Of a stretch of DNA of 64,000 nt, positions 9,768-64,000 are shown piece by piece. The stretch comes from Candidatus Micrarchaeota archaeon. Its GTDB lineage: Archaea > Micrarchaeota > Micrarchaeia > Micrarchaeales > CABMGC01. Numbering within the stretch: the first letter of the stretch is position 1; each line of letters starts with the position of its first letter. The position numbers and the translations under genes are program-made. Location of the stretch: assembly GCA_021791245.1 (NCBI GenBank), contig JAJYWY010000007.1:16340-80339 (forward strand). The letters are read 5' to 3'. Below the pieces are notes generated by a model. That model was given only the letters and a program-made list of their open reading frames with translations. It had not been told where the DNA came from and searched no databases.

Positions 9768-10085
9768 TCATTTTGCAGATTCAAGCAAAATTTTTTTCTG
9801 TTTCCCGCAATCGCAGGTATATATGATGCAACTAGGCGAACTCGCCTTCCTGACGGTGCAATTTATGCCTGGCACAAGAAAGTTGCTGCATCTTTTGCAT
9901 ATTTTGTTAGACACGTCCCTACTCATCTTTACCTTATAATGCGAACTTATCTTCTTTGCGATCAGTGCATACCTTTTTGCTCGTGTTATTGATTCTTGTG
10001 TATTCCTTGTTTCTTCATTTTCGGCCAGTCTGGCAAGTATATTAATCCTTTCCTGAGCTATCATATCTATAAGTTTAGATTTCAT
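9768..10085 (-). CDS. rnp4: RNase P protein component 4 (Rpp21/Rpr2 family)
   Basis: 105 aa with an N-terminal helical RINILARLAENE segment and a zinc ribbon CKRCSNFLVPG...YTCDCG. Confidence 0.75.
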   Translation of the reverse strand: MKSKLIDMIAQERINILARLAENEETRNTQESITRAKRYALIAKKISSHYKVKMSRDVSNKICKRCSNFLVPGINCTVRKASSPSCIIYTCDCGKQKKILLESAK

Positions 10086-50807: not shown

Positions 50808-51305
50808 TCAATTCACATTTGATATTCCAAATTCCGAAAGGTACCTGTTAGAGTATCTTTCGTCATCCGTGACCTCCCTGCCGAACCATTCCAAAGGTTT
50901 GAAGGCCATGGCAGCTCCCTCATCCGGAAATTCTACCTCGCAGGTCATGAGGCCAGAACAACGCCCTCCATACACGTCGAGCTCCGCTTTGAGCGAAGTG
51001 CCGCTTATAGGTATCAAGTATCTGGTCTTTTCTATCGTCTTTCCCCCAGATTCATCCCACATCTTTTCAAATACTTCTATGCCAACCTCATTTTCTTCCT
51101 CTTCCCGTACCATTCCCTTGCCTTTCTTCACTGTTACAAAATATCTTGCCTTGTTGCCTTTTGTTATCTCGCGTATCCTCCCAGCTTCGGTATACCCTTG
51201 CCTTATCCTCTCATTATCCATGTACTGAAAGCCTTCAGGTGGATTTTTTACAAGGAATTTCCTTTCTATCTCTAATGCCATATTCCCAAGTACTATATAA
51301 TGCAC
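50808..51305 (-). CDS. CYTH-domain triphosphate tunnel metalloenzyme
   Basis: The EIERKFLV signature is at the N-terminus (probable start MALEIERKF at 51281), ~157-165 aa. Confidence 0.8.
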   Translation of the reverse strand: MHYIVLGNMALEIERKFLVKNPPEGFQYMDNERIRQGYTEAGRIREITKGNKARYFVTVKKGKGMVREEEENEVGIEVFEKMWDESGGKTIEKTRYLIPISGTSLKAELDVYGGRCSGLMTCEVEFPDEGAAMAFKPLEWFGREVTDDERYSNRYLSEFGISNVN

Positions 51306-51436
51306 GTATTAATATATTTGTAACTATATTCCATTTGATATGGTTATAAATTCATAGCGGGAAAAATCCTATCTTTTAAATAAGAGATGAAAGCGAAGAA
51401 TGTGGAAAAAGTATATATTTTAATAGTATAATAGAT

Positions 51437-51652
51437 ATGGCCGTCATGAAAACTGCATATAAGTATCGTGCGTATCCTTCACATCCACAGAAACCGGCAC
51501 ACAGCTGCCAGCTGGATGGCTTCCTTCACAAGATGATGCAACAGTCGTTGAATCAGGAACCATACGTGGCGGTTCACGATGACCAATCTAAAACGCCACT
51601 GAAATCCAAAGGCTTCAGTAGTAGGATATCACTTAATAGCTACAATTGCTAA
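51437..51652 (+). pseudogene. Possible relic of an IS200/IS605 TnpB (OrfB) N-terminus
   Basis: MKTAYKYRAYPSHPQK resembles the conserved TnpB start (M..AYKYR.YP...Q), but nothing TnpB-like follows. Confidence 0.25.
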
Positions 51653-51661
51653 GGTGGCATT

Positions 51662-52639
51662 GTGATAGTACTTGGGATAGAGAGCAGCGCGCACACGTTC
51701 GGGGTAGGGATAGTGGATAAAGGCAAAGTGCTCTCCAACGAAAAGATAATGTATCCTATAAATACATCAGGGATAATACCCGCAAAGGCAGCAGAGTTCC
51801 ATTCAGGAAATGCGGCAAAAGTGATAAAGAATGCTCTCTCATCTGCAGGTATAAGCATAGATGATGTCGAAGGGGTAGCTTATACTGCGGGTCCTGGAAT
51901 AGGCCCATGCCTGCAGGTAGGCCAGCTTTCAGCAAAAGCAATTGCACAGGAGCTTGGCATAAAGATAGCACAGGTGAACCATTGCGTTGCCCATATAGAG
52001 ATAGCAAGAATATTATCCGGCATCGATGATCCTTTGGTGCTTTACGTAAGCGGCGGCAATTCACAGATACTAGAACTTGCCAATAAACCCTTCCCGCATT
52101 ACTCTGTCCTTGGGGAAACGTTTGACATAGGCATAGGGAACATGCTTGACAGTTTTGCCAGGGCGCTCGGGCTGAATCCCGCCTGGGGCTCGTCAATAGA
52201 GAGAACTGCAGAGAAGGGAAGTTACATAAAAATGCCATATACCGTTAAAGGCATGGATTTCTCATTCACGGGGCTGTTAACTAATTGCATTAAATTAATA
52301 GGCAAGGAGAGCAAGGAGAACATATGCTTCTCGATGCAGGAGAATGCATATGCGATGCTTTGCGAAGCTACTGAGAGGGCACTCTTTCTAACAGGCAAGA
52401 AGGAACTGCTAATCTCAGGGGGAGTAGCACAGAGCAATAGGCTGAAGGAGATGCTTAAATGCATCTCAATGGATCACGGGATAAAGATGGGCTATGTACA
52501 GAACGAATTCAATGCAGACAATGGTGCAATGATAGCAATGGTGGGCGAAAGAATGATACAAAATGGTAAATATTCCTCCATCAGCGATTGCAAAATAGAC
52601 CAGAAATACAGGACAGATAAGGCGGAGGTGTGCAGGTAA
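51662..52639 (+). CDS. kae1: tRNA N6-adenosine threonylcarbamoyltransferase Kae1 (KEOPS)
   Basis: GTG start, VLGIESSAHTFGVGIV, HCVAHIE metal-binding motif, 325 aa. Confidence 0.9.
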   Translation: MIVLGIESSAHTFGVGIVDKGKVLSNEKIMYPINTSGIIPAKAAEFHSGNAAKVIKNALSSAGISIDDVEGVAYTAGPGIGPCLQVGQLSAKAIAQELGIKIAQVNHCVAHIEIARILSGIDDPLVLYVSGGNSQILELANKPFPHYSVLGETFDIGIGNMLDSFARALGLNPAWGSSIERTAEKGSYIKMPYTVKGMDFSFTGLLTNCIKLIGKESKENICFSMQENAYAMLCEATERALFLTGKKELLISGGVAQSNRLKEMLKCISMDHGIKMGYVQNEFNADNGAMIAMVGERMIQNGKYSSISDCKIDQKYRTDKAEVCR

Positions 52640-53244
52640 TGGATGGGAATACGCGAAACAGGATTATCTCGGAAGGCGCAGAGGCAAAGGTGTATTCTGC
52701 GAATATATTTGGCAGGGAATGCATAGTAAAGGTTAGGTACAGTAAGAGCTACAGGAACAGCATACTTGATATTGGGTTGAGGAAATCGAGGACTAAAAGG
52801 GAATCCAAGATAATGGCCAAGGCCGCTTCATTAGGCATAAAAATACCTAGGATTATTGCATCTGGGGAATTCTCTATATATATGGAAGCTATCCATGGCT
52901 CGATGATGAAAGACTCAAAGTATGGCAAATCCTTTATGAGCGCGCTTGGGAGCGAGCTTTCCAAGCTGCATTCCGCAGGCATTTCGCACGGCGACTTTAC
53001 TCCTGCCAACGTAATTATATGCGGTAGCTCATTCTACATAATAGATTTTGGCCTGTCCGAGATAACGCAGAGCCTGGATTCGATGGCAATAGACCTGCTG
53101 CTTATGAAGCGCTCAAACCCAAAACACTTCAGCTCCTTTAAGAGAGGCTACTCATTGTGGAAAGGGGCCGGGGAAGTGCTGGAGAGGCTAAAAAAAATAG
53201 AGGAAAGAGGAAGGTACAAGACGAGGACACTATCCACTGCCTAA
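52630..53244 (+). CDS. bud32: KEOPS kinase/ATPase Bud32
   Basis: [18 protein letters not shown] and IIDFGLS kinase motifs. It overlaps kae1 by 10 nt. Confidence 0.85.
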
Positions 53245-53354
53245 AGCTTTCCTACTCTCCTCTTCGCGGCCTTTTTCATTCTCCTGCGCTTCTTCTTTAT
53301 CCATTTCCAGCGCATTCTTCCTTTTTTCTTCCATTTTCTAGGAATACTACCCAA
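53241..53354 (-). CDS. rpl41e: 50S ribosomal protein L41e (below the ORF-track cutoff)
   Basis: The minus strand encodes (TTG)[36 protein letters not shown]. The [11 protein letters not shown] core matches my memory of archaeal L41e. Alternative starts are GTG 53363 and ATG 53315. The listed ORF 53157..53360 is its shadow. Confidence 0.7.
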
Positions 53355-53612
53355 ATATAACACCTTTAAGATATCAATTAGGAACATGATAAATTAAATA
53401 CTTTGCCTAGCTTTTGCCGTGTCCAATAAATAATCTATACTACATATTTACGATCTGAAACAATGGAATGGACATCAATTGTCCGGGTAAAATGCAGTAG
53501 TTGCCGTGTTACTACGTCTTGCCCTTTTTTCTATTATGATATCTTTTCGGAATAGATGAATTCGGCATAAGCTTTAAATAGCCAGGAAAAAGGAATATAA
53601 CCGGGGAATTAT

Positions 53613-54629
53613 ATGAACAATAATTTTAGCAAGAACAATAAGGAAACGACCGAAAATGACAAATGGGAATTTGCCAAGATTAAAAGAGCTGCATTCAAGG
53701 CAGTCTCCGTAGTTGCAATGGCATCGGTTATGTATTTAAGCAATCCAAAGCCTGTATTCGCTTCTGCAAAGAGAAATATCTCTCCTGGCCAGTCTGGCAG
53801 CGCTACAATAGTATTTACTCCAAACGGCAACTCAAGCACCCCTATTTCTGCACTGCTTTCCGACAAAGCCCTTTCCGGCTGGATGAAAAATGAAGTTGAA
53901 AAATTAAACTCCAACGGGAGCATATTCGGGGTGGGGGGAGGAGTCCCGCTGTATTACAACCCTATATCAGGCAAAATAACCGTATCCGGACATAAGTATG
54001 GCATTGCAATAACCACAAATTCTCCTACCTGGAAAGGCAGCATACCTGTAAGCGGAGTGAGGATACAGAAATTTTACATAAATTATGCTTCAGGAAGCGG
54101 AAGTAATACAGAAAGCGTTGCTGCTTCGGGCTCTATTGCCATGTACAATGTCAGGTTGCCGCACATAAGCCCAATAATATATAACATAGTGGTCAGCCCT
54201 TCAAGCTACTCCAAGCAGACACAACCACTTACGCAGGTATATGCGCCTTTCAATTTTTATGGGTTCTTTGGCCAGCAAAACATAATGCAGAGCATAGTGA
54301 GCAACATTAAGGACTCTTTAGTCTACGGGATAAATACGACAACGTCAAACTACATAGGCGGAATGATAAACAACCTTTTTGGGATAAACCAGAGCCGGTA
54401 CGCATTAAGCAATGTGGAAGTAGGCAAACAAATAAATGAAACCTGGAATAGGTTCAATGGAGCAAACATTACATTTGCATTCAAAAGCAAGAATGGAAAC
54501 GTTGTAAAGTTTGTAATTCCAGATTATTATGTAAAGGAAACGGTATCTAAAGATGGTGGTATGCACATGGCCGGAAAAGAAATGCCGTTTGTAGGAAATC
54601 CTGAACTGTCAGGCGTGCTGCGCCAATGA
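53613..54629 (+). CDS. Secreted protein, unknown function
   Basis: Sec-type signal AAFKAVSVVAMASVMYLSNPKPVFASA, 338 aa. Confidence 0.5.
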   Translation: MNNNFSKNNKETTENDKWEFAKIKRAAFKAVSVVAMASVMYLSNPKPVFASAKRNISPGQSGSATIVFTPNGNSSTPISALLSDKALSGWMKNEVEKLNSNGSIFGVGGGVPLYYNPISGKITVSGHKYGIAITTNSPTWKGSIPVSGVRIQKFYINYASGSGSNTESVAASGSIAMYNVRLPHISPIIYNIVVSPSSYSKQTQPLTQVYAPFNFYGFFGQQNIMQSIVSNIKDSLVYGINTTTSNYIGGMINNLFGINQSRYALSNVEVGKQINETWNRFNGANITFAFKSKNGNVVKFVIPDYYVKETVSKDGGMHMAGKEMPFVGNPELSGVLRQ

Positions 54630-54840
54630 TATCTTTTCATTCTTATAAAGGATTACACGCGCATTGAGCGGCATATTCCTGCCAGAGTTATAATACTTGT
54701 TTCTTCCCCTCTATTATTATTTGCTGGTATTATGCACAACCCAGCAGGATATGCTTCTGAATGCAAAAGCCTAGCAATCGCTCATATATATAAATTTTGC
54801 ATAATATCTAGATACTGCTGTTAAACTGAAGTGTGCTTAA

Positions 54841-55629
54841 ATGGACAAAAAAATAGGTTTTGCTGTAGGTGGAGCCATAATAATAGTATTGATACTTATT
54901 GCATTGTTCTCAAGCAAATCAGGGCCAACCTCATTCATGTTCTCTACAAAGTCGACAAGCGTCAATACCACCGCATCTACAATAAGTACAGTAATGACTG
55001 CAAGCACAACATCGCCAACCACTACTGTATTAACAACAAGCTGCATATCGCAGAGCAGCGAAACTTACATATACAACGGCAATTTCGATACAGGCACTTA
55101 TGAGGGATGGAATGCAACGGGGCTTGGTTTCGATAACGCCCCGTTCAACATAACGAAAGCCAACAGCGAAGGGAACTATTACGGCTATCCGTGGTCAAAC
55201 TATGTTGGATCATATGTTGCCACTACATACCAAGGCGGGTTCGTAAGGCAGGTAGGCAATCTCACCTCCGATCCGTTTGAAGTGGTGCAGCCTTACCTTA
55301 ATTTCAGGCTAATATCCCCACAGAACAACAAGCTTTACATAGAGATACTGCATGACGGAAATCCTGAGATAATTGCCCATTTCAATACTTATTCTGTGCC
55401 GTCCATACAGAATGGCAACAACACTTCCCAGTCGACTTTTGTAAATGCAAGCATACCCATCTCAACGCTATTATGCCAGAACGTGAGTATAAGGATAGTC
55501 GCCGATGTTGTCGGAACCATTGCCACTAAGAACTACTATATAGCTGCAGGTGATTTCTACATGGGCAAAACTGCAACAGCACCAAGCAGCCTCGCTTCCA
55601 ACATAACAATAACTCCTGTGGTGCCGTAG
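54841..55629 (+). CDS. Membrane-anchored Thr/Ser-rich stalk protein with a C-terminal beta-rich (lectin-like?) domain
   Basis: Anchor IGFAVGGAIIIVLILIALF, then a T/S-rich linker STSVNTTASTISTVMTASTTSPTTTVLTTS. Confidence 0.5.
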   Translation: MDKKIGFAVGGAIIIVLILIALFSSKSGPTSFMFSTKSTSVNTTASTISTVMTASTTSPTTTVLTTSCISQSSETYIYNGNFDTGTYEGWNATGLGFDNAPFNITKANSEGNYYGYPWSNYVGSYVATTYQGGFVRQVGNLTSDPFEVVQPYLNFRLISPQNNKLYIEILHDGNPEIIAHFNTYSVPSIQNGNNTSQSTFVNASIPISTLLCQNVSIRIVADVVGTIATKNYYIAAGDFYMGKTATAPSSLASNITITPVVP

Positions 55630-55639
55630 CGGTGTTCTG

Positions 55640-57100
55640 TTGCTGCGCATATACAACCCCATCTCAAGGAAGAAAGAGGAAGTGACTCCAGGGCATGGCA
55701 GAACAATATCAATGTATGCGTGCGGACCCACAGTGTACTATTTTGCTCACATAGGCAATATGAGGACATATTCAGAAGAGGACATACTTAAGCGGGTGCT
55801 CATTCATAACGGTTATTCGGTAAAGCACATAATGAACATAACGGATGTTGGGCATCTTGTTGGAGATGGAAACATAGGTGAAGACAAAATAGCTATGACT
55901 GCAAAGAAGGAAGGGAAGGATGCGAAAGAAATCGTAACGTTCTATACCGATGCATTCTTCTCTGACTTAAAGGAATTGAATATCCTCCTTCCAGATAAAA
56001 CTCCAAAGGCTACAGAGCACATAAAGGAGATGCTAACCATGATAAAGAATCTCTACAATAAAGGCTTCCTTTACAAGATAAGGACAGGAATGTATTTTGA
56101 CACATCAAAGTTTAAGGAATATGGGGTGCTTACAGGTATGAATTTCAATAAGATGAATGAAAACCTGATTGCCGGGGCGAGGGTCAAGAGGGAGCATGGG
56201 ATAAGGAATACAACAGATTTTGCAGTATGGCGTTTTTTGGAAGATGGAAACAACTGGATGGTATGGGATTCGGAATGGGGAAGGGGATTTCCAGGATGGC
56301 ATATAGAGTGCAGCGCAATGAGTATGAAATACTTGGGAGAGACTATTGACATACACTGCGGCGGCGTAGACCATATACCAATACATCACACCAACGAGAT
56401 TGCGCAATCAGAGGCAGCGACAGGGAAGAAGTTCGTAACGCACTGGTTCCATGTCGAATTCCTTACGGTAAACGGCAGCAAAATGTCAAAATCCCTAGGT
56501 AATATATATACGCTGGAAGACATAAAGAAAAAAGGATTCGAACCTGTAGCACTACGATATTTCTTAATATCCGGCCATTACAGGCAGAAGCTCAACTTCA
56601 CGTTCGAAGCGCTGGAAAGCGCACAGAGGACGCTAGAATACATATTCGGATTCGTAGAAAGGCTGACATCGCACATGAAATTCAGCGAGAAAAGCAATAA
56701 GAAGTTCATCGATTTCGCAACGGACGCAAAATCAAAATTCTTCAAGTCGCTTGATGATGACCTTGACATGCCAAATGCCCTATCTTCAATGCACCTGCTT
56801 ATAAGGGATGCCAATAAGGCACTCGATAAAAACGCATTAAGTGAAGAAGATATCGCAAAAGTTTTAGACATAATGCTTTCATTCGACGAGATACTTGGAT
56901 TAGGCATAGGGAAGAAAATAGTTGAGGAAAAGCATGCCCCGCTTGATAAGGAAATAGAAGATCTCATAAACGAACGCAACGCACTGCGAGGCATAAAGGA
57001 TTTTGCAGGATCGGATAGGATAAGAAAACTGCTTCTAGACAAGTACAAGATAATAGTAGAAGATACCTCGGAAGGAACCAAGTGGAAGAAAGCAAAATGA
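55640..57100 (+). CDS. cysS: Cysteinyl-tRNA synthetase
   Basis: TTG start preceded by GGTG. Motifs are HIGN (FAHIGNMRTY) and KMSKS. Confidence 0.9.
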   Translation: MLRIYNPISRKKEEVTPGHGRTISMYACGPTVYYFAHIGNMRTYSEEDILKRVLIHNGYSVKHIMNITDVGHLVGDGNIGEDKIAMTAKKEGKDAKEIVTFYTDAFFSDLKELNILLPDKTPKATEHIKEMLTMIKNLYNKGFLYKIRTGMYFDTSKFKEYGVLTGMNFNKMNENLIAGARVKREHGIRNTTDFAVWRFLEDGNNWMVWDSEWGRGFPGWHIECSAMSMKYLGETIDIHCGGVDHIPIHHTNEIAQSEAATGKKFVTHWFHVEFLTVNGSKMSKSLGNIYTLEDIKKKGFEPVALRYFLISGHYRQKLNFTFEALESAQRTLEYIFGFVERLTSHMKFSEKSNKKFIDFATDAKSKFFKSLDDDLDMPNALSSMHLLIRDANKALDKNALSEEDIAKVLDIMLSFDEILGLGIGKKIVEEKHAPLDKEIEDLINERNALRGIKDFAGSDRIRKLLLDKYKIIVEDTSEGTKWKKAK

Positions 57101-57192
57101 ACGATTTAGCTAAAACTAATCATTAACAACTTATAAAAATCCACCGCAAAGTAAATCTGATTAAAATGCCTGGATAATAGTATCTAGTATCA

Positions 57193-57630
57193 TTAATTTT
57201 GTATATGCCCATCATTGTTCCCTGAAGATTCTACCTTTCCTCCCCGCTTGACCTGTCTCCCATGCCTTGCAGATGCGAAGAGAACATCTGGGTCTTCTTC
57301 CCCTTCAGCTTCTATCCATGCCTTAATGTATATTCCGATGTTCTTCAAGGGCTTCGTATATCTATCTGTAAAAGAATACATATTGTCCTCGTGCTTCAAT
57401 ATGCCTACGTTTACCCCAAAATCAAGATACCTTTTCCATGTAGCCTGTGGCAATTCATCTCCGCAATCCTTGAGCCTGAGATTCTTTTTCCTTTTCACTT
57501 CGACCAAAGCCTTTGCAAATCTATATGCCTTTGTCGGATTATCGAAGTAAATGGCTGCGACCTCATGTATGCTGGGGTTCTTAAGCTTCTCCTTCAATGG
57601 TGCATCCTCGAATTCCCAGTATTTGATCAT
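57193..57630 (-). CDS. Hypothetical protein, 145 aa
   Basis: A clean ORF with no confident motif. Confidence 0.4.
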   Translation of the reverse strand: MIKYWEFEDAPLKEKLKNPSIHEVAAIYFDNPTKAYRFAKALVEVKRKKNLRLKDCGDELPQATWKRYLDFGVNVGILKHEDNMYSFTDRYTKPLKNIGIYIKAWIEAEGEEDPDVLFASARHGRQVKRGGKVESSGNNDGHIQN

Positions 57631-57638
57631 GGCAATAC

Positions 57639-58748
57639 CTAACCGTATAATAAGGTCACAATATCCTTATCGCTTACAATATGATTTATTCCTACTTTCT
57701 GATTATTAAACCTCACGCTTTTCCCTGTTATGTATGCGCCTCTCAGCCGCTTCTCGGTTTTAAGCCTCAATTTCGCACCCAAGTCAGCAATGCTGCTTCC
57801 AGCTTTTAGTATCAATGGATTTTTAATGTCTGGCTCTTCACCAGATTTTTTCAAGTATACCCTTATTATCCCTAGCTCCCTGAATACTTCTTCCTTGAGC
57901 TGCCCTATGCCCTCATTAGTCAATGCGCTTATAGGAATTACTTTCATGCCTGTATTCATTTCCAATGTTTTCTTTGCATGCATGAACCCTTTGGATATGT
58001 CTATCTTATTTAACGCTATAATCCCCCTCATGTAGACGTTGCCTTCTTCGAGGAACTCCACAATGTCCTCTATCGCAGGATTCCCTGACAGAATTACATT
58101 TGCATTGAATATGCCAAGCGCATTGAGGACTTCCTTTATGTTATTCTGGTCCTCTATTTTGCTGCTCTTTCCAGTTATCTTTATTCCTCCCGTAGGCGTC
58201 TTCTCGACATTTATGCTGCTCTTCTTGCCGCCGAATATTATCCCGAGCTGATGAAGCTCCTTTATTAATCCTATCAGTTTTTCGTATTCGTTTGCATCTA
58301 CCACAAAGACAACTAGGTCTGACACCCTTATTACGCTCGCTATTTTCGCACTCTCTCCCTTTCCTATTCCCGCACCTTCGATAAGCCCAGGTATATCAAG
58401 AATCTGTATCTTTGCAGAGTTTATGTCCAGCATTCCAGGTATGACAGTTAAAGTGGTGAATGCATAATCTGCAACCTTCGATTCTACGTTAGTAAGCGCA
58501 TTAAGCAGCGAAGATTTGCCGGCATTCGGAAATCCCACAAGCGCAACTGTTGCATCTCCTGTTTTCTTAACTGCAAATCCCTTCCCCTTCATCCCTTTCT
58601 TTGAAGCCATCTCTTTGTTTATTCTTGCTATCTTGGCCCTCAGTATACCTAAGTATTTGTTTGTTGCCTTGTTGTATTTTGTTTTTGCATACTGTTCCTT
58701 AAGTTCTTCAATCTGCTTTTCCATATTTTCGCTTCCCATAAGAACCAT
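57639..58748 (-). CDS. Developmentally regulated GTP-binding protein (DRG/Obg-family GTPase with a TGS domain)
   Basis: NKATNKYLGILRAKIA, G1 GFPNAGKSSLLNALT, DIPGLIEGA, and a C-terminal TGS-like segment. Confidence 0.85.
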   Translation of the reverse strand: MVLMGSENMEKQIEELKEQYAKTKYNKATNKYLGILRAKIARINKEMASKKGMKGKGFAVKKTGDATVALVGFPNAGKSSLLNALTNVESKVADYAFTTLTVIPGMLDINSAKIQILDIPGLIEGAGIGKGESAKIASVIRVSDLVVFVVDANEYEKLIGLIKELHQLGIIFGGKKSSINVEKTPTGGIKITGKSSKIEDQNNIKEVLNALGIFNANVILSGNPAIEDIVEFLEEGNVYMRGIIALNKIDISKGFMHAKKTLEMNTGMKVIPISALTNEGIGQLKEEVFRELGIIRVYLKKSGEEPDIKNPLILKAGSSIADLGAKLRLKTEKRLRGAYITGKSVRFNNQKVGINHIVSDKDIVTLLYG

Positions 58749-59093
58749 GGTTTTGCGTATCTGTTATATTTTCATATTCTTATAGCCTTAAGCTGCAAAC
58801 GTAAAACGGCATTGCATATCCGCGAAATTTTCTAACAATACTATGAAATATCCGCTGTCGACGGAAAACCGATATAGCGCCATAAAAATATTTTATTATA
58901 ATATGTGTGTTGTACTAATGTATTTAAATATCTTGAGTAGGTATTTTTATAAATGTTATTAAAAGTGAATAAAATGGCAAAAAAAGCGAAGAAATCTTCT
59001 GCAAAGAAGAAAAAAAGGTAAACCTTGGAAGCCCGCGATTGATTAGGCTTTCTTTTCTTTTATTTTGTTTTACCCTTTTTCTAGAGAACCCGT

Positions 59094-60404
59094 TTACATT
59101 TTTAGTCCAGGCATGAACTTTGACATGTTTTTCTTGAAATTCCTGTCGTTCTGCATCATTCCAATCATTTTCTTCATCTTAGAGAAATCGCTTAGCAACG
59201 CTCTAACATCTTTCTCGCTCGTTCCGCTGCCTATTGCAAGCCTCTTTATGCGCGCCTGGTTGTGAAGCAGCGTATCATTCCTGCGCTCTTCTTTCGTCAT
59301 GGAGCCTATTATCGCCTTGTACTTCTTAAGTTTGTCTTCGCTCTGCTCCACAACGCTGCTAGGAACATCTGCAGCGCCTAGCATTCCAAGGATGCCTTTT
59401 AGTGGTCCCATTCCAGACATTGTTTTGAGCTGGGCGTAGAATGTCTCAAAATTAAGCTCGTTCATGTTTACTTCGTCTGGCTTCAGGTTAGCTTCTTTTA
59501 TCGCATTCTGGACTTTATCCACAAGCGATTCTATGTCGGGCATGCCCAGAAGCCTTCCTACATACTTTTTTGCATCATAGACCTCGAGGTCGTTGAGCTT
59601 CTCCCCGTTCCCAATGAACGTTATATTGACTCCTGCCTCGTTTACTGCACTCAGTGCCCCCCCTCCTTTTCCGGAGCCGTCAAGTTTCGTGACTATCACT
59701 CCATCTATCTTTACTGCAGAATTGAGTTCCTTTGCCTGTGTAGTCGCTATCTGGCCTATATCTGCATTCACTACGAGGAGCTTCTCATCAGGCTTGAATT
59801 CATCCGCAATCAGCGTGAGCTCTCTTATAAGTCCAGGATCTAGCGCGTTTCTTCCGCTAGAATCGCAGATTATAACTTTCCTGTCTTTTAATGCCTCTTT
59901 TCCTTCGCGTATTATCCTGCGCACGTCCTTTTCTCCCTTTATTCCGAAGAAGCCTGCATTAGCCTGCTTCGCCAATGTCTCCAGCTGTTCGTAAGCTGCC
60001 GGTCTTGTAATATCGCAGCATATAAGCCCGGAGCTAATCCCCCTATTCTGGTAATACTTAGCAAGCTTCGCGGCGGTTGTAGTCTTCCCGGATCCGTACA
60101 TGCCAAGCAAAAGGATTCTCTTAGGCTTCATTTCCGGCGAATAACTGCTTCCCATTATCCGTGCAAGCTCATCAAACAGAAGGTTAACTATGTAATCTTT
60201 GGGGTCAATCCCCTTTGGTATGTTAGAATGCAGGGAGGCATCTTCTATTCTCTTAGTAAGCTCGAAGACAAGCTTGACATCCACATCCGCGCTTATCAGC
60301 GCCTTCTGCAGTTCTTTGTTGAACTCCTTTATTGTCTTACTGTCTATTATTGTCTTCCCCCTAAGACGTGCGACAGCCTGCCTGAGCCCTTCTCCTAAAT
60401 CCAT
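59094..60404 (-). CDS. srp54: Signal recognition particle protein SRP54
   Basis: GMYGSGKTTTAAKLA, DTSGR-like CDSSGR, Met-rich M domain. The ORF opens at GTG 60413; ATG 60404 (MDLGEGL) is the likelier start. Confidence 0.9.
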   Translation of the reverse strand: MDLGEGLRQAVARLRGKTIIDSKTIKEFNKELQKALISADVDVKLVFELTKRIEDASLHSNIPKGIDPKDYIVNLLFDELARIMGSSYSPEMKPKRILLLGMYGSGKTTTAAKLAKYYQNRGISSGLICCDITRPAAYEQLETLAKQANAGFFGIKGEKDVRRIIREGKEALKDRKVIICDSSGRNALDPGLIRELTLIADEFKPDEKLLVVNADIGQIATTQAKELNSAVKIDGVIVTKLDGSGKGGGALSAVNEAGVNITFIGNGEKLNDLEVYDAKKYVGRLLGMPDIESLVDKVQNAIKEANLKPDEVNMNELNFETFYAQLKTMSGMGPLKGILGMLGAADVPSSVVEQSEDKLKKYKAIIGSMTKEERRNDTLLHNQARIKRLAIGSGTSEKDVRALLSDFSKMKKMIGMMQNDRNFKKNMSKFMPGLKM

Positions 60405-60490
60405 GCGATTCACAGCAAAAACAGATAAAATAAGCGTATAATATATAATAATAAAAGCTATTTAGAAGTTTACGTGCAAATGCAATAAAA

Positions 60491-60603
60491 GGGCTCGTAG
60501 CTCAGCCTGGTCAGAGCGCTGGTCTTATAACAAACTTCTTAGGAAGAAGTTTGTCCATGAATAAGAAAGCCAGATGCCGAGAGTTCAAATCTCTCCGGGC
60601 CCA
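60491..60603 (+). tRNA. tRNA-Ile-like, apparent anticodon UAU, with a ~38-nt intron after position 37
   Basis: GGGCTCG-TA-GCTC..GAGC-G-CTGGT-CTTATA[intron CAAACTTCTT-AGG-AAGAAGTTTG...]A-GCCAG-ATGCC-GAGAG-TTCAAAT-CTCTC-CGGGCCC-A. Confidence 0.7.
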
Positions 60604-61478
60604 AATCAGCATTAACGAGAGAAAACAGTAAGTCCGAAAACGGAAAAGCAAGCAAAAGGAAAACTCGAATTCTTGAAAAATCTGAACTCGAAGAGCTAAA
60701 AACAGATTTGCAGAGAATTCTGCCAACATTGGCAAAGCACAATGTTGAAGACCTTCGCACTCTAATACACCAAAGTTACGTAAAGCGTTTCAAGAGAAGC
60801 CGTATCCCAAAATACGGCAACCTGAACAAAGGCTTTACGGAATACGAATTGCAGAGGTTCTTTAAGGCAATAGACAGCGACAAGTTCAGGATATTGTTCT
60901 CTTGTCAGGCACAGTTGGGTCTTAGGATAGGCGAGGCTGTAAAGCTGAACGTCAAAAACATCAACTTCCAAACAAGAGAACTGACCTTAAAGACAGAAAA
61001 GGCAAGGATAATTGACACATTGCGCATCCCTGTCCAATTATTCAAACAGACCTTAGAGCTAATAAAAAGCAACGAAAAACGCATAGAAGAATCAGGCGGA
61101 TATATCTTCTTCAAAGACCGCAATAGCTCAAACAGGCTGCCATATCTGAAAATGGACTACGTACGAAACAGGTTCAGGCACTACATTGAGCTAGCGGATA
61201 TAGACCAAGTCTATGACATAAGCGATGAATCCTACTAAAGCCATGTCCCTAGAAGGCTCCACAGGCTCACTACGCACAGTCTACGCCACTATGCCATAAC
61301 CAGTTTCTCTAAGCAAACAAATGGCAACATAGTGCTAACCAGCAGGTTCGCAAGGCATTCCAAGCCTGATACAACCATGACCTACATAAACACGCGCAAG
61401 GAAGAGCTGTATGCGGAGCTGGATAACATGGCAATGGACAGCGTAGAAAGGCTCAAGCGTAGTATAATGCCAAAATAA
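60561..61478 (+). pseudogene. int: Tyrosine recombinase (SSV-type int(C)-like fragment) with an in-frame TAA at 61236-61238
   Basis: The frame is open from inside the tRNA. Motifs are box I GLRIGEAVKL, then after the TAA HSLRHYAIT, ARHSKPDTTMTY. There is no in-frame ATG before the fold; the first possible start is TTG 60708. Confidence 0.7.
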
Positions 61479-61524
61479 GCAGTTACGTGATCTCAGGATT
61501 CTTCAATAGTTAGCATCGAAAGCT

Positions 61525-61788
61525 CTACGCTTTAAAACACGTGCTACATTCCCAATGCTCTACAAGTCTTGGTTTTGCATTTTTATCGTATTCTTTGTTT
61601 GCTATCTTTTCAGTTATGAACTCAGGTTTCCAACTAATAAACTTATGAAAATATCTATCAGTTTTCTTGTAATTCATATTCGTTTTCCCATAATAGTACC
61701 AATCCTTTCCGATTATCTTGCGTGTTTTATCATCAACTTCTACATAGCCCTTTAACCCGCAGATTGCACACGATATTTTATGTTTCAT
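61525..61788 (-). CDS. Cys4 zinc-ribbon protein, unknown function
   Basis: CAICG near the N-terminus and CSTC at the C-terminus, 87 aa. Confidence 0.45.
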   Translation of the reverse strand: MKHKISCAICGLKGYVEVDDKTRKIIGKDWYYYGKTNMNYKKTDRYFHKFISWKPEFITEKIANKEYDKNAKPRLVEHWECSTCFKA

Positions 61789-61821
61789 TTAAGCAGCCTC
61801 ATTACTGCCGTCATCTGCCGT

Positions 61822-62028
61822 TTATAGATACTTTTCAATGTCTTCCCATTTCAGGCCAGTTTGCCTCAGTATCCTGTTCACTATTTGTTGTCTTAGTTCC
61901 TTCTGAGCTATCTGAATCACCGTATGGTGCTCCTTTTCATCCCACAGGACAACATGATCACCTTTCCCCTGCCTTGCAGAGAATCCATAGTGCTCTTGCA
62001 GTATCTTGAGCAATTTGAGTGGTTTCAC
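61822..62028 (-). CDS. hicA: HicA-family mRNA interferase toxin
   Basis: 68 aa with ...GFSARQGKGDHVVLW...IVNRILRQTGL, the YcfA/HicA pattern. Confidence 0.7.
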   Translation of the reverse strand: MKPLKLLKILQEHYGFSARQGKGDHVVLWDEKEHHTVIQIAQKELRQQIVNRILRQTGLKWEDIEKYL

Positions 62029-62054
62029 AGGTCTGAGCGCACCTATAAAATCAC

Positions 62055-62279
62055 CTAGCTTCTAGCGATTAGACTTCTTAGTATAGGCGACTTCATTTCC
62101 TTGCGATTGTTCTTTTCCAGTAGAAATTCGACAGCCGTATCTACCGCGTCCTTCAGTTCGCTCTCAAGTTCGCGGAGGCTTTTAGCCTGATCTTGAACGT
62201 GCAATTCATCAATTACCCCTATGAACCACTTTCCATCTTTGTGAACATCTGCCTTGAATCCGTATATCTCCATCTTCAT
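62055..62279 (-). CDS. hicB: HicB-like antitoxin (N-terminal HicB fold only)
   Basis: MKMEIYGFKADVHKDGKWFIGVIDELHVQDQAKSLRELESELKDAVDTAVEFLL. The ORF extends to 62402, but the upstream part looks non-coding. Confidence 0.6.
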   Translation of the reverse strand: MKMEIYGFKADVHKDGKWFIGVIDELHVQDQAKSLRELESELKDAVDTAVEFLLEKNNRKEMKSPILRSLIARS

Positions 62280-62407
62280 GTCTATCTCTTTAGATATATG
62301 GCAGCCACAGGTATAAAATGTTTCGCTTCTGATAACGCTCCTCTTCATAAGTATGGAACGCAACTCTACATGAAAACAGGACGTAGGGAGTATTTTACCC
62401 ATACGTA

Positions 62408-62705
62408 GGGAGTTTTTTGGCCCTTTCTAGCAGGCTTTTAGGTCGTTTTCCCTCGTAAAACTCCCCCTCAGTCGTGGAACGACCATTTTGTCACGATTTT
62501 GCTAAAAGTATGTAGAGTGAGCCTTCAGCCCGCCATTAAACGCTGCCTTCGGCAGCGAAACGGCGGGCTTCGGCTCTCTATTTCAGCAGCCGTTTTGACC
62601 CCCTACACAAAACGGCGTAAAGGTTCCTTGAACTGCCAAGTTGTTGGCTTAGAGGGAGCCCCTCATTTTGCGAAGCAAAATAGAGCTGGGCGACCCCAAG
62701 GAATA
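62408..62705. ncRNA. Candidate structured RNA (or structured DNA element): a GC-rich multi-helix island of unknown family and undetermined strand
   Basis: Nested helices 62519-62576 (GAGCC/GGCTC, GCCCGCC/GGCGGGC, CGCTGCC/GGCAGCG). Hairpins at 62589-62616, 62652-62664 and 62665-62681. Long-range pairs 62624-62630/62697-62703 and 62408-62416/62457-62465. Confidence 0.45.
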
Positions 62706-62714
62706 GAGATATGA

Positions 62715-63512
62715 CTAGGTCGAGAATATGTATGTCCATGACTGGGCTTCAGTAGAAGTGCCATCGCATGGTGTGGGGCTTAAGGAGGAGATTGTGCCTG
62801 CTTGTACACTGCCAAGCGTTACAACTACTGTGCATACTTCTGCGCCAGTAAGACCTGTGTTCTGATAGAAATCGAAAGTTACTGTGGCTCCCGAAGCTAT
62901 TGCACCTCCAGTATTTCCATAAGCACCGTTTATAGTGTATGTACAGGCTCCACCGAAGAGACCACAAGAAACAGTATCAGTAAAAGTGCCTGCGAGATGT
63001 GGCACTTGGTAACTACTCAACTGGCTTTGTAGGCTTGATATTTCATTATTGTCAGCAGAGAGCTGACTGCTGCTACTGCCACTTTGGGAAGACAGAGAAC
63101 TTACTTCGTTATTAAGATTTTGAACTTGGTTCTGTAAGCTACTAATCTGGGAAGCATCATTGTTTATTGCAGCCTGATCTGTACTTATTGTTGAGCCATC
63201 AGAAGATACTTGATTGTTTAGACCTGCGATTGTGCTGTTTTGAGTCGAAACTTCATTGTTCAAAGAGGAAATATGTGAATTAGCAGAAGAGAGTTGCGCA
63301 GTTGTATTAGACAACTGACCTTGGGTTGTAGAGAGACTACTGTTTAGGAGTAATGCGTATATTATTGCTAGAACAACGACCACAGCCAATATACCTATGA
63401 CTATATTTTTTGTGTTAGAAGGCGAAGAACTAGCATGTGTAGTATGATGAACCTTTGGTTCTTCTTGCTCAGAAGTATCTTGGAGAGGTTTCTTTGAAGC
63501 CATTAAATCCAA
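62715..63512 (-). CDS. Membrane-anchored Ser/Asn/Gln-rich coiled-coil repeat protein with a Cys-containing C-terminal globular domain
   Basis: TM segment IVIGILAVVVVLAIIYALLL, then repeats of the type ISSLNNEVSTQNSTIAGLNNQVSS / ISSLQNQVQNLNNEVSSLSS / ISSLQSQLSS. Confidence 0.55.
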   Translation of the reverse strand: MDLMASKKPLQDTSEQEEPKVHHTTHASSSPSNTKNIVIGILAVVVVLAIIYALLLNSSLSTTQGQLSNTTAQLSSANSHISSLNNEVSTQNSTIAGLNNQVSSDGSTISTDQAAINNDASQISSLQNQVQNLNNEVSSLSSQSGSSSSQLSADNNEISSLQSQLSSYQVPHLAGTFTDTVSCGLFGGACTYTINGAYGNTGGAIASGATVTFDFYQNTGLTGAEVCTVVVTLGSVQAGTISSLSPTPCDGTSTEAQSWTYIFST

Positions 63513-63590
63513 TTAGCATTAGGCATAAATATTTAAATATGTTTAAACATAGGACATATCATAACCTTATAATATAATGAGATGTCATAG

Positions 63591-63806
63591 ATGCGTGGCG
63601 AAGAGATACAGAAGAGGATAATTGATTATCTAAAAGAGCAGGAGTGGCCTTGCACTACGGAAGATATAGCTAGAGGCGTAAACATAAGCTGGAATACTGC
63701 CGAAATACATTTAGTTAGACTTCAGATGAAAGACAAAGTAAAATTTAGGAAAGTAGGCAGACAAAATCAGTGGTGGGCAAATAAGAACTATAAAAATAAC
63801 ATGTAA
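63591..63806 (+). CDS. 71-aa winged-helix DNA-binding protein
   Basis: IIDYLKEQEWPCTTEDIARGVNISWNTAEIHLVRLQMKDKVKFRKVGRQNQW is a typical small wHTH of archaeal viruses and plasmids. Confidence 0.6.
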   Translation: MRGEEIQKRIIDYLKEQEWPCTTEDIARGVNISWNTAEIHLVRLQMKDKVKFRKVGRQNQWWANKNYKNNM

Positions 63807-63820
63807 GGGCAGGTGACAAT

Positions 63821-64000
63821 ATGGCACAAGAACCATCGCCTTATGAAATGATAGAGGCGATATTAAGATTGGACGATACTTACAAAATATTTGTATTGAG
63901 TGCATTGTATGCGATCTTCTTGTATAGCATACTATTTATCGGAATAGACATAACTCCTGAAGGCATTTACACCTTGACTATAAACACTTTTATAATGGCT
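63821..64000 (+). CDS. Partial ORF (5' part) encoding a membrane protein; it runs off the right edge
   Basis: AGGTGA sits 5 nt upstream of ATG 63821. The product starts MAQEPSPYEMIEAILRLDDTYKIFVLSALYAIFLYSILFIGIDI... and has no stop before nt 64000. Confidence 0.45.
   Translation, partial: MAQEPSPYEMIEAILRLDDTYKIFVLSALYAIFLYSILFIGIDITPEGIYTLTINTFIMA

Follow-up and report, generated by a model that had tools for sequence, protein, structure and literature searches.

Introduction

In the best-described suicidal integrases of archaea, which are of type I, the attachment site of the element (attP) lies within the integrase gene (int) itself, and insertion is directed to the 3' part of a tRNA gene. 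Upon integration the tRNA gene is regenerated, and the C-terminal and N-terminal portions of the integrase gene, int(C) and int(N), come to rest at opposite borders of the inserted DNA (PMC8371274). These enzymes comprise the SSV, pTN3-like, and pT26-2-like families, all of which belong to PF16795, and they have been reviewed as a monophyletic group that arose in a single event and was developed by hyperthermophilic archaea (PMC8371274). Here, we describe a comparable arrangement in a 64,000-nucleotide stretch of DNA (the window) from a Candidatus Micrarchaeota archaeon, for which an original prediction, made from the sequence alone, had proposed the left border (attL) of a tRNA-targeted element with an SSV-type integrase. 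In our reading, to which we assign a probability of roughly 0.8, the window contains attL and most of the body of a cryptic integrated element of ~5.4 kb in a Micrarchaeota (DPANN) chromosome, and integration of this element has split its integrase gene.

Cryptic integrated elements are known from Thaumarchaeota, where they range from 2.6 to 98 kb, are bounded by integrase genes, and lack virus or plasmid signature genes (Krupovic et al. 2019, PMC6563490). One of these thaumarchaeal elements, NitEve-E3, possesses an SSV1-like split integrase (PMC6563490).

The mechanism proposed for the Micrarchaeota element is site-specific recombination by a tyrosine recombinase, in which the chromosomal site (attB) would be the 3' exon of a tRNA-Ile(UAU) gene and attP would be situated within the 5' end of the integrase gene that the element itself carries. 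In the process the tRNA would be regenerated and the integrase gene divided; its promoter, its ATG, and ~16 codons (int(N)) would be carried to the right border (attR), and the remainder of the gene (int(C)) would stay at the left border, where it reads out of the tRNA. Coordinates given below are internal to the window, and positions beyond 64000 refer to a composite of the window and overlapping metagenome contigs. Labels of the L0xx and P00xx types denote loci and homologues, respectively, from a survey of the integrase family.

The Left Border and the Integrase Gene

As originally predicted, an intron-containing tRNA gene directly follows the core gene srp54 (59094-60413, minus strand; Pfam SRP54, 7e-59). 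The tRNA occupies 60491-60603 on the plus strand and matches the Rfam model RF00005 over its full length (56.9 bits, E 7e-11). Its anticodon loop, CUUAUAA, identifies it as tRNA-Ile(UAU), and the Rfam alignment places a 39-nt insertion after this loop. Specifically, the gene consists of a 5' exon (60491-60529), an intron of ~38 nt located after position 37 (60530-60567), and a 3' exon (60568-60603). ARAGORN overlooked the gene in its default mode and recovered the same span once introns were allowed. The tRNA is intact after integration. The attL core (60568-60603, plus strand) is one copy of a direct repeat whose first base is the first base of the 3' exon, such that the start of the att repeat coincides with the intron/exon junction of the tRNA; models that tie integrative elements to the disruption of tRNA genes have been put forward (PMC3293823).

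Immediately following a TGA codon at 60558-60560, a reading frame opens at 60561, inside the tRNA, and continues through the 3' exon into a tyrosine recombinase. This is int(C) (60561-61478, plus strand), a pseudogene comprising the integrase minus its start codon and first ~16 codons, which reads ...KPDAESSNLSGPK out of the tRNA. In agreement with the earlier translation, the frame contains no ATG, GTG, or TTG codon between 60561 and the TTG at 60708, its first possible start. The recombinase assignment likewise stands, as the conceptual product matches PF00589 (1.5e-11, residues 93-281) and PHROG integrase families (best E 8e-21), and the six tyrosine-recombinase positions of the R-K-H-R-H-Y series (R122, K147, H239, R242, H266, and Y275) are invariant in the family alignment. 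A total of 522 homologues of the integrase were found in the protein collection, the best being 94% identical.

The frame had been described as free of stops through the catalytic domain, and on this point the original prediction was mistaken. An in-frame TAA at 61236-61238 (plus strand) falls between the GLRIGEAVKL and HSLRHYAIT motifs and interrupts the catalytic domain, within the span covered by PF00589. At this position the nearest homologue (P0001, 94% identical) has Glu, encoded by GAA in intact relatives. The stop can be taken as real because the same truncation recurs in an independent NCBI assembly, GCA_027339425.1, which is 99.95% identical to window positions 51094-61660 and for which the same 176-aa truncated open reading frame (ORF) has been called. 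The window copy of the integrase gene is therefore a real pseudogene, and internal stops occur in 10 of 81 loci of the family. By virtue of this nonsense mutation, the window element can no longer make its own integrase, and it could move only with a related integrase provided in trans.

An AlphaFold model of an intact homologue (mean predicted local distance difference test score, pLDDT, 79.6) consists of a helical hairpin (residues 34-71) followed by the recombinase catalytic domain, and it is preceded by 30 residues, including the part encoded by the att site, that are predicted to be disordered (pLDDT <50). Since the model places disorder throughout residues 1-30, integration would deprive the gene of its promoter, its start codon, and a short, flexible N-terminal stretch, but of no folded domain.

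The Right Border

The 64-kb window contains no further copy of the tRNA 3' segment, and the right border was therefore derived from short contigs of other samples that overlap the window end by 630-1392 identical bases. A 71-aa protein encoded near the end of the window occurs, in identical form, on 12 short metagenome contigs. Four of these 12 contigs (L002, L003, L005, and L006) overlap the final 630-1392 bases of the window at 100% identity and carry the sequence onward for ~2.2 kb. On the resulting composite, the second tRNA 3' copy that had been predicted to lie to the right, accompanied by a short int(N) ORF, was found. The attR core (composite 65992-66027) matches 60568-60603 at 34 of 36 bases, the last 24 nt exactly, and it too starts at the first base of the exon. 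The int(N) start is an ATG at composite 65946, 46 nt upstream of the attR repeat, and the 27-codon ORF that it opens encodes the peptide MKLETNERKQKSGTHEPDVVSSNLSGP and reads into the repeat in the int(C) frame, 16 codons lying ahead of the repeat. On the source contig, the right-hand repeat is expected to be preceded by ATGAAGCTTGAAACC. The earlier interpretation of 60561 onward as an int(C)/attL border of an element reaching past nucleotide 64000 is thus borne out, and the element spans 60568-66027, or ~5.4 kb. The predicted junctions for the window element would read ...CTCACGAGCCAGATGTCGTGAGTTCAAATCTCTCCGGGCCCAAATCAGCATTAACGAG for attP and ...GATGCCGAGAGTTCAAATCTCTCCGGGCCCATATCGCAAAACAGC for the empty site. 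We infer that the rejoined ORF is the translated integrase. Because both attR mismatches sit on the left, element-derived side of the repeat, the crossover would have taken place inside the 24-nt identical stretch.

The att core is further accompanied by short repeats. A 15-nt motif, AACGAGAGAAAACAG, lies 10 nt to the right of the attL core (60614-60628, plus strand) and recurs 16 nt to the left of the attR core (composite 65961-65975); no repeat of such length was reached in any of 200 shuffles. Related CGACGACAAAACAG-type repeats flank the core in ~10 other elements, and direct repeats of 12-15 nt are present on both arms of the rejoined attP (also in L033, L042, L043, L048, and L053). The two AACGAGAGAAAACAG copies of the window element are read in different frames, and this suggests that the flanking repeat is a DNA-level binding site. 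As such, the AACGAGAGAAAACAG repeats are candidate protein-binding sites around attP.

Just beyond attR, composite 66028-66094 resembles the 5' end of another int(C) over ~46 nt (ISQNSTTAPQFE, relative to ILKNTTTKRKFE in homologues), and it is followed by a third att copy at composite 66095-66120 (26/26 identical). The same arrangement of third copy and int(C) remnant is shared by L007, the closest relative at the same tRNA. Composite 66028-66120 looks like the remnant of an earlier integration, and the presence of both parts would therefore mean that the site has been used at least twice. This segment (L001 4046-4136) also scores as a miniature tRNA-like acceptor/T-arm (23.9 bits in Rfam, below threshold).

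Survey of the Integrase Family

A survey of the integrase family recovered 233 relatives in GTDB species genomes, of which 80 loci were fetched. Taxonomy labels were Micrarchaeota/Micrarchaeaceae for all but two of the survey loci; the labels listed also include three Marsarchaeota and one "bacterium". According to ARAGORN, 64 of the 80 loci have a tRNA on the same strand that terminates within 200 nt of the conserved integrase core on its upstream side, and in 62 of these 64 the integrase frame extends without a stop into the tRNA. The target tRNAs represent at least eight amino-acid specificities, including Leu, Glu, Ala, Val, Lys, Pro, Gln, and Ile. All three reading frames are used across the T-loop among relatives, and many database "proteins" consequently begin with a translated tRNA in any of three frames (SSNLRGP, RVQISPPA, or FKSPGP). 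Part of the remaining loci possess tRNAs with unusual introns that are unseen by ARAGORN, as in L053. In this locus, positions 9916-10022 form a tRNA-Leu(UAA) with a D-loop intron, and the insertion supplies an ATG that has led to the calling of a 315-aa "integrase" (P0054). This protein, beginning MATEKRAG..., was considered as an unsplit integrase and rejected, as its N-terminal peptide is the translated tRNA.

Bounded elements, in which a downstream repeat (19-127 nt) of the tRNA 3' part could be found, number 34, and their sizes range from 1.6 to 9 kb. When their borders were rejoined in silico, 28 of the 34 yielded one continuous ORF, with an ATG located 6-34 codons upstream of the repeat. 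The start peptides fall into recognizable types; M[KE]LE.[ND][DA]K is found in elements that target Ile, Val, Glu, Pro, and Gln tRNAs, and MARNIGVKQL in elements that target Leu tRNAs. In the other two frames, an ATG upstream of attR is seen in only ~3 of 34 elements each. Taken as a whole, these rejoined junctions favour an integrase ORF that spans attP.

The survey also showed that one metagenome-assembled genome (MAG), MAS5.bin21, contains seven separate integrase loci (L014, L036, L043, L045, L049, L051, and L073), which shows that one small genome can harbour many such elements.

A Conserved Structured Non-Coding Element

The window element contains a structured non-coding element of ~310 nt (62397-62707, plus strand) that, at 51% G+C, is its most G+C-rich part. 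Searches using BLAST and an nhmmer profile found the element in 48 of about 88 sources. Full-length and strong matches are all on the int strand, the opposite strand being represented by one marginal, partial match (L040, E 9.5e-4). The element usually starts 20-200 nt past the int stop, and it lies within the att bounds wherever these are defined; in the window copy, a module consisting of a CxxC-motif ORF and hicAB is inserted between int and the non-coding element. Together with int, it forms the backbone of the family.

Several observations speak for structure. The element folds more stably than its shuffles (z = -4.5, plus strand), and its reading frames are not conserved, being broken by indels of 1, 16-17, and 23 nt. 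A 12-sequence alignment supports 49 consensus pairs with 96.9% of cells paired, and 14 of these 49 pairs show compensatory changes, relative to 4.9 +/- 1.6 in shuffles (0 of 500 reach 14) and 0-2 when the partners are slid. Invariant G-U pairs point to the plus strand. No Rfam family was matched. The element may act as a transcript, whether as the integrase 3' untranslated region, as a primer, or as a regulator, or it may be a site in single-stranded DNA, for example an origin.

The 5' module (model positions 2-125) has been partly duplicated in tandem in L046 (9716-9838), L047 (10856-10981), L048 (11116-11238), L052 (5938-6059), L062 (1093-1215), L038 (10818-10933), and L078 (10881-10995). 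A CATGT(A/G)GAGT motif marks the limits of every module, and the resulting pattern of repeats is iteron-like. A role as guide RNA was considered and rejected, as complementarity to cognate and non-cognate att sites is 7.6 versus 7.5 nt, and Ile- and Val-tRNA-targeting elements have copies that are 89% identical. A 19-mer of the element also produced two matches in IMG/VR that were discarded; one (L091) lies in the coding region of an RNA-virus-like contig and is attributed to chance, and the other (L092) has no profile match.

Gene Content of the Element

The genes downstream of int(C) are largely those named in the original prediction, which listed a zinc-ribbon ORF, HicB/HicA, a winged helix-turn-helix (wHTH) protein, a coiled-coil membrane protein, and a small membrane ORF; all were recovered, HicB with weak homology only. 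An 87-aa ORF with two CxxC pairs, zinc-ribbon-like and conserved in L007, is located at 61525-61788 (minus strand) and has no match in Pfam, PHROGs, PADLOC, or NCBIfam. The hicA toxin gene (61822-62028, minus strand) matches PF07927 (7e-07) and the PHROG 353 toxin family (7e-08). Directly upstream of it is a hicB-like antitoxin gene (62055-62282, minus strand), whose frame is open to 62402 with a likely start Met at 62282. Its resemblance to HicB (UPF0150, E 0.24; PDB 2yzt, E 0.07) is accompanied by the occurrence of the same gene pair in L007.

To the right of the non-coding element, the cargo begins with a 265-aa membrane-anchored, Ser/Asn/Gln-rich coiled-coil protein (62715-63512, minus strand) that has coiled-coil-type low-complexity matches only; its many library matches are compositional and were discounted. 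It is followed by the 71-aa winged-helix DNA-binding protein (63591-63806, plus strand; FaeA-like 8e-05, LexA_DNA_bind 6e-04), which may be cargo or a regulator, and by a 169-aa multi-pass membrane ORF that starts at 63821 on the plus strand, is cut by the window end at 64000, and ends at composite 64330. A 486-aa ORFan (composite 64355-65815; L001 2371-3831) completes the set. Neither the 169-aa nor the 486-aa protein has a match in Pfam, PHROGs, PADLOC, or NCBIfam, and the sole match of the latter among 5.8 billion protein clusters is itself. The ORFan holds an R-x4-H motif (IRNDFVH) recalling HEPN nucleases, for which the profile libraries give no support. The cargo genes have a G+C content of 33% versus 41% for the genome. 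A promoter and terminator scan employed bacterial models and was set aside as uninformative for an archaeal host.

Cargo differs among relatives and strains. L007, at 3.4 kb and with an integrase 91% identical at the DNA level, has int, the CxxC ORF, hicAB, the non-coding element, and int(N) in common with the window element and carries different cargo. Assemblies of near-identical strains end or break at the tRNA and within the element (L089 at 60520, L088 at 61660, and L001 at 62363), and to the left of 62363 L001 has an 86-aa ORF where the window has hicAB. Given these breaks and the difference in L001, population-level variation in the element is suggested. In 30 bounded relatives, the cargo amounts to 124 ORFs. 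Family counts for these cover the 25 most frequent of 89 Pfam and 98 PHROG families, and the commonest families listed are DNA methyltransferases and restriction-modification domains, HNH endonucleases, HicA, wHTH regulators, a Schlafen-like helicase, and a transposase.

Weighing the Alternatives

The most direct challenge to a split gene is an integrase of the pNOB8 or lambda type that stays intact, with its true start at TTG 60708 or another codon just past the tRNA, so that the open tRNA frame and the right-border ORF would be incidental. Gene callers do start many homologues just after or inside the tRNA (MKNTTT... and MGAN...), no internal stop is found in 70 of 80 integrated copies (~88%), which could mean that they are still functional, and the N-terminal 30 residues, being predicted disordered, may be dispensable. 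However, an ATG in frame with the integrase is present upstream of the core in only 36 of the 79 integrated copies. Moreover, ATG counts over the 150 nt that precede the conserved core are 42, 42, and 21 in frames 0, 1, and 2, with no enrichment in the integrase frame, which argues against a natural start just after the tRNA. A pNOB8-type start had been named at the outset as the finding that would speak against a split, and these counts give no sign of it. In the window itself, TTG 60708 is already within the N-terminal helix region that the family conserves. Nearly all tRNA-adjacent loci have an integrase frame that stays open into the tRNA, whichever frame is used, and most rejoined junctions supply a conserved, ATG-started peptide in the integrase frame; an integrase that remains whole is accordingly quite improbable. 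Two further alternatives concern the nature of the inserted DNA. The original prediction proposed a provirus or integrated plasmid, and the hallmark genes of such an element might be too divergent to recognise. The element's genes are mostly ORFans, the conserved structured element beside int could be a replication origin, and small archaeal viruses and plasmids are often without detectable homologues. Against this stand the size of only 5.4 kb, in line with that of the relatives, and the fact that the 25 commonest Pfam or PHROG families listed for those 124 cargo ORFs include no capsid, packaging, or replication (Rep) protein. The window genes gave nothing beyond coiled-coil noise when compared with PHROG structural families. 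A scan of IMG/VR with the integrase alignment found no relatives, nor did tblastn against PLSDB, and tblastn against INPHARED returned only a weak match to a Lactobacillus phage integrase. A provirus or plasmid is thus unlikely, and the element is best described as a minimal cryptic integrated element with a defence/addiction cassette, there being nothing that supports a provirus or plasmid; it has an integrase and att repeats, and no virus, plasmid, or conjugation signature was detected in it, as in the elements for which the term was defined (PMC6563490). Finally, the locus might hold no mobile element at all but a decaying chromosomal Xer-like recombinase gene with a tRNA as its neighbour by chance. 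The window gene is a pseudogene, and XerA is among the closest solved structures, yet the region is framed by direct repeats of the tRNA 3' part, near-identical strains and relatives (L001 and L007) differ in the genes found between these repeats, assemblies are interrupted at the tRNA (L089) and within the element (L088), and the seven loci of MAS5.bin21 are in different places. We regard this last explanation as hardly credible.

The preferred reading, a gene split by its own integration, has weaknesses of its own. The split is deduced from integrated copies only, and the right border lies outside the window and is known from overlapping contigs of other samples. An in-frame ATG is missing in 6 of the 34 bounded elements, GTG or TTG starts in int(C) may be used, and the start peptide overlaps a conserved DNA motif, so that its conservation may be partly at the DNA level. 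Neither an excised circle nor an empty site nor a free replicon was found in IMG/VR, a scan of JGI metagenome contigs, PLSDB, or INPHARED; a degenerate pattern of the attL, attR, attP, and attB junctions had 0 matches in the JGI metagenome contigs. When the rejoined N-terminus was used as a protein query, no unsplit integrase of the exact subtype was present in the protein collection, and only tRNA read-through forms and the attR ORF were returned. The sole unsplit ORF seen in the family is P0094 (L087 515-1465), which begins MARNIGVKQ... and continues with the att-encoded part. L087 has no upstream tRNA and no attR within 10 kb, and its contig ends 514 nt upstream, such that the ORF could be a tandem junction, a rearrangement, or a misassembly.

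A broader proposal extends from the window to the family. Micrarchaeota may hold a large, undescribed lineage of self-splitting integrases, independent of the SSV/pTN3/pT26-2 clade, that mobilises minimal cassettes of 1.6-9 kb without replication or virion genes; we advance this tentatively, rating it at a little short of even odds. The same tentativeness attaches to two of its parts, namely, that only the start codon and a disordered, tRNA-encoded tail would be separated, and that the ~310-nt element would be the sole other conserved part. Within such a lineage, the life cycle of the cassette might require the ~310-nt element as a regulatory RNA, a primer, or an origin.

Significance

Taken alone, the window copy is a decayed fossil of modest interest, and its value lies in serving as an entry point to a widespread, apparently undescribed family of integrases and elements. 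If the broader proposal is true, a separate, PF00589-type self-splitting family that is abundant in mesophilic or acidophilic DPANN archaea would imply that the arrangement arose more than once or is much older. Such a family would also be a simpler case for understanding why split genes persist, since only a disordered tail and a start codon would be lost. Archaeal integrative elements would then include a new class, by which cargo for defence and toxin-antitoxin functions is spread from one DPANN genome to another. The structured non-coding element is itself a candidate for a new class of RNA or origin tied to a mobile element. There is a practical consequence for annotation as well; many "integrases" in Micrarchaeota MAGs begin with a translated tRNA, and small restriction-modification or toxin-antitoxin cassettes are easily overlooked.

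Comparison with Known Systems

The likeness to SSV-type systems lies in the position of attP inside the integrase ORF of the window element and in the restoration of the target tRNA's 3' part at attL. The proteins differ. The SSV1 integrase matches PF16795 (1.5e-61) and PF07935, whereas the Micrarchaeota family matches PF00589 only (27 of 27), with 0 of 27 matching PF16795 at E<=1. Alignment of the Micrarchaeota family profile with the SSV1 integrase by hhalign gave a probability of 0.2%; no SSV1 integrase was found among PDB sequence matches at E<=1, and no entry so described is among the 50 Foldseek matches listed. Membership in the SSV/pTN3/pT26-2 protein family was rejected on these grounds, the two groups being related in sequence no further than at the level of the superfamily. 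The placement of the att site differs as well, at codons ~64-78 of the 335-aa SSV1 integrase versus codons ~17-28 in Micrarchaeota. As a result, the SSV1 Int(N) is a folded part of ~65 aa (PF07935), whereas the Micrarchaeota int(N) would consist of a start codon and a short disordered tail. The hosts are DPANN archaea of acid-mine and sediment metagenomes, versus hyperthermophiles for the SSV type. The label "SSV-type" given in the original prediction would thus hold for the mechanism only, and not for the protein family.

In fold, the Micrarchaeota integrase is closer to the Xer/lambda-type enzymes (XerA, integron IntI, and lambda Int), with which it has the catalytic fold in common. The best of the 50 Foldseek matches listed are VchIntIA (2a3v, 1.6e-07) and XerA (5hxy, 1.3e-06), the best PDB sequence match is XerA (4a8e, 5.8e-05), and the structural neighbours include the integron integrase, XerA, XerH, and the Tn1549 and lambda integrases. 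Identity to these enzymes is only 12-22%, and a short helical hairpin (34-71) takes the place of the full core-binding domain. Unlike the Micrarchaeota integrase, Xer/lambda-type enzymes are not split by their own reaction. The pNOB8-type (type II) integrases resemble it in being tRNA-targeted tyrosine integrases of archaeal elements. In these, however, attP lies outside the gene and the gene stays whole, whereas in Micrarchaeota the frame crosses att and the start codon is found at the other border.

Full-text literature searches, whose coverage is incomplete, returned no paper describing split integrases in Micrarchaeota or DPANN. The integrase family is common in Micrarchaeota, is accompanied by a conserved structured non-coding element, and is apparently undescribed. 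The suggestion that the locus may represent an undescribed element family appears to hold, the integrase lying outside the SSV/pTN3/pT26-2 family; in its general make-up the element fits the description of the cryptic integrated elements of Thaumarchaeota. Like its thaumarchaeal counterparts, the Micrarchaeota element is small, bounded by its integrase, and free of any virus or plasmid signature. It differs from them in its host phylum, in its integrase family, in its smaller size (1.6-9 kb among relatives), and in the structured non-coding element that it and its relatives share beside int.

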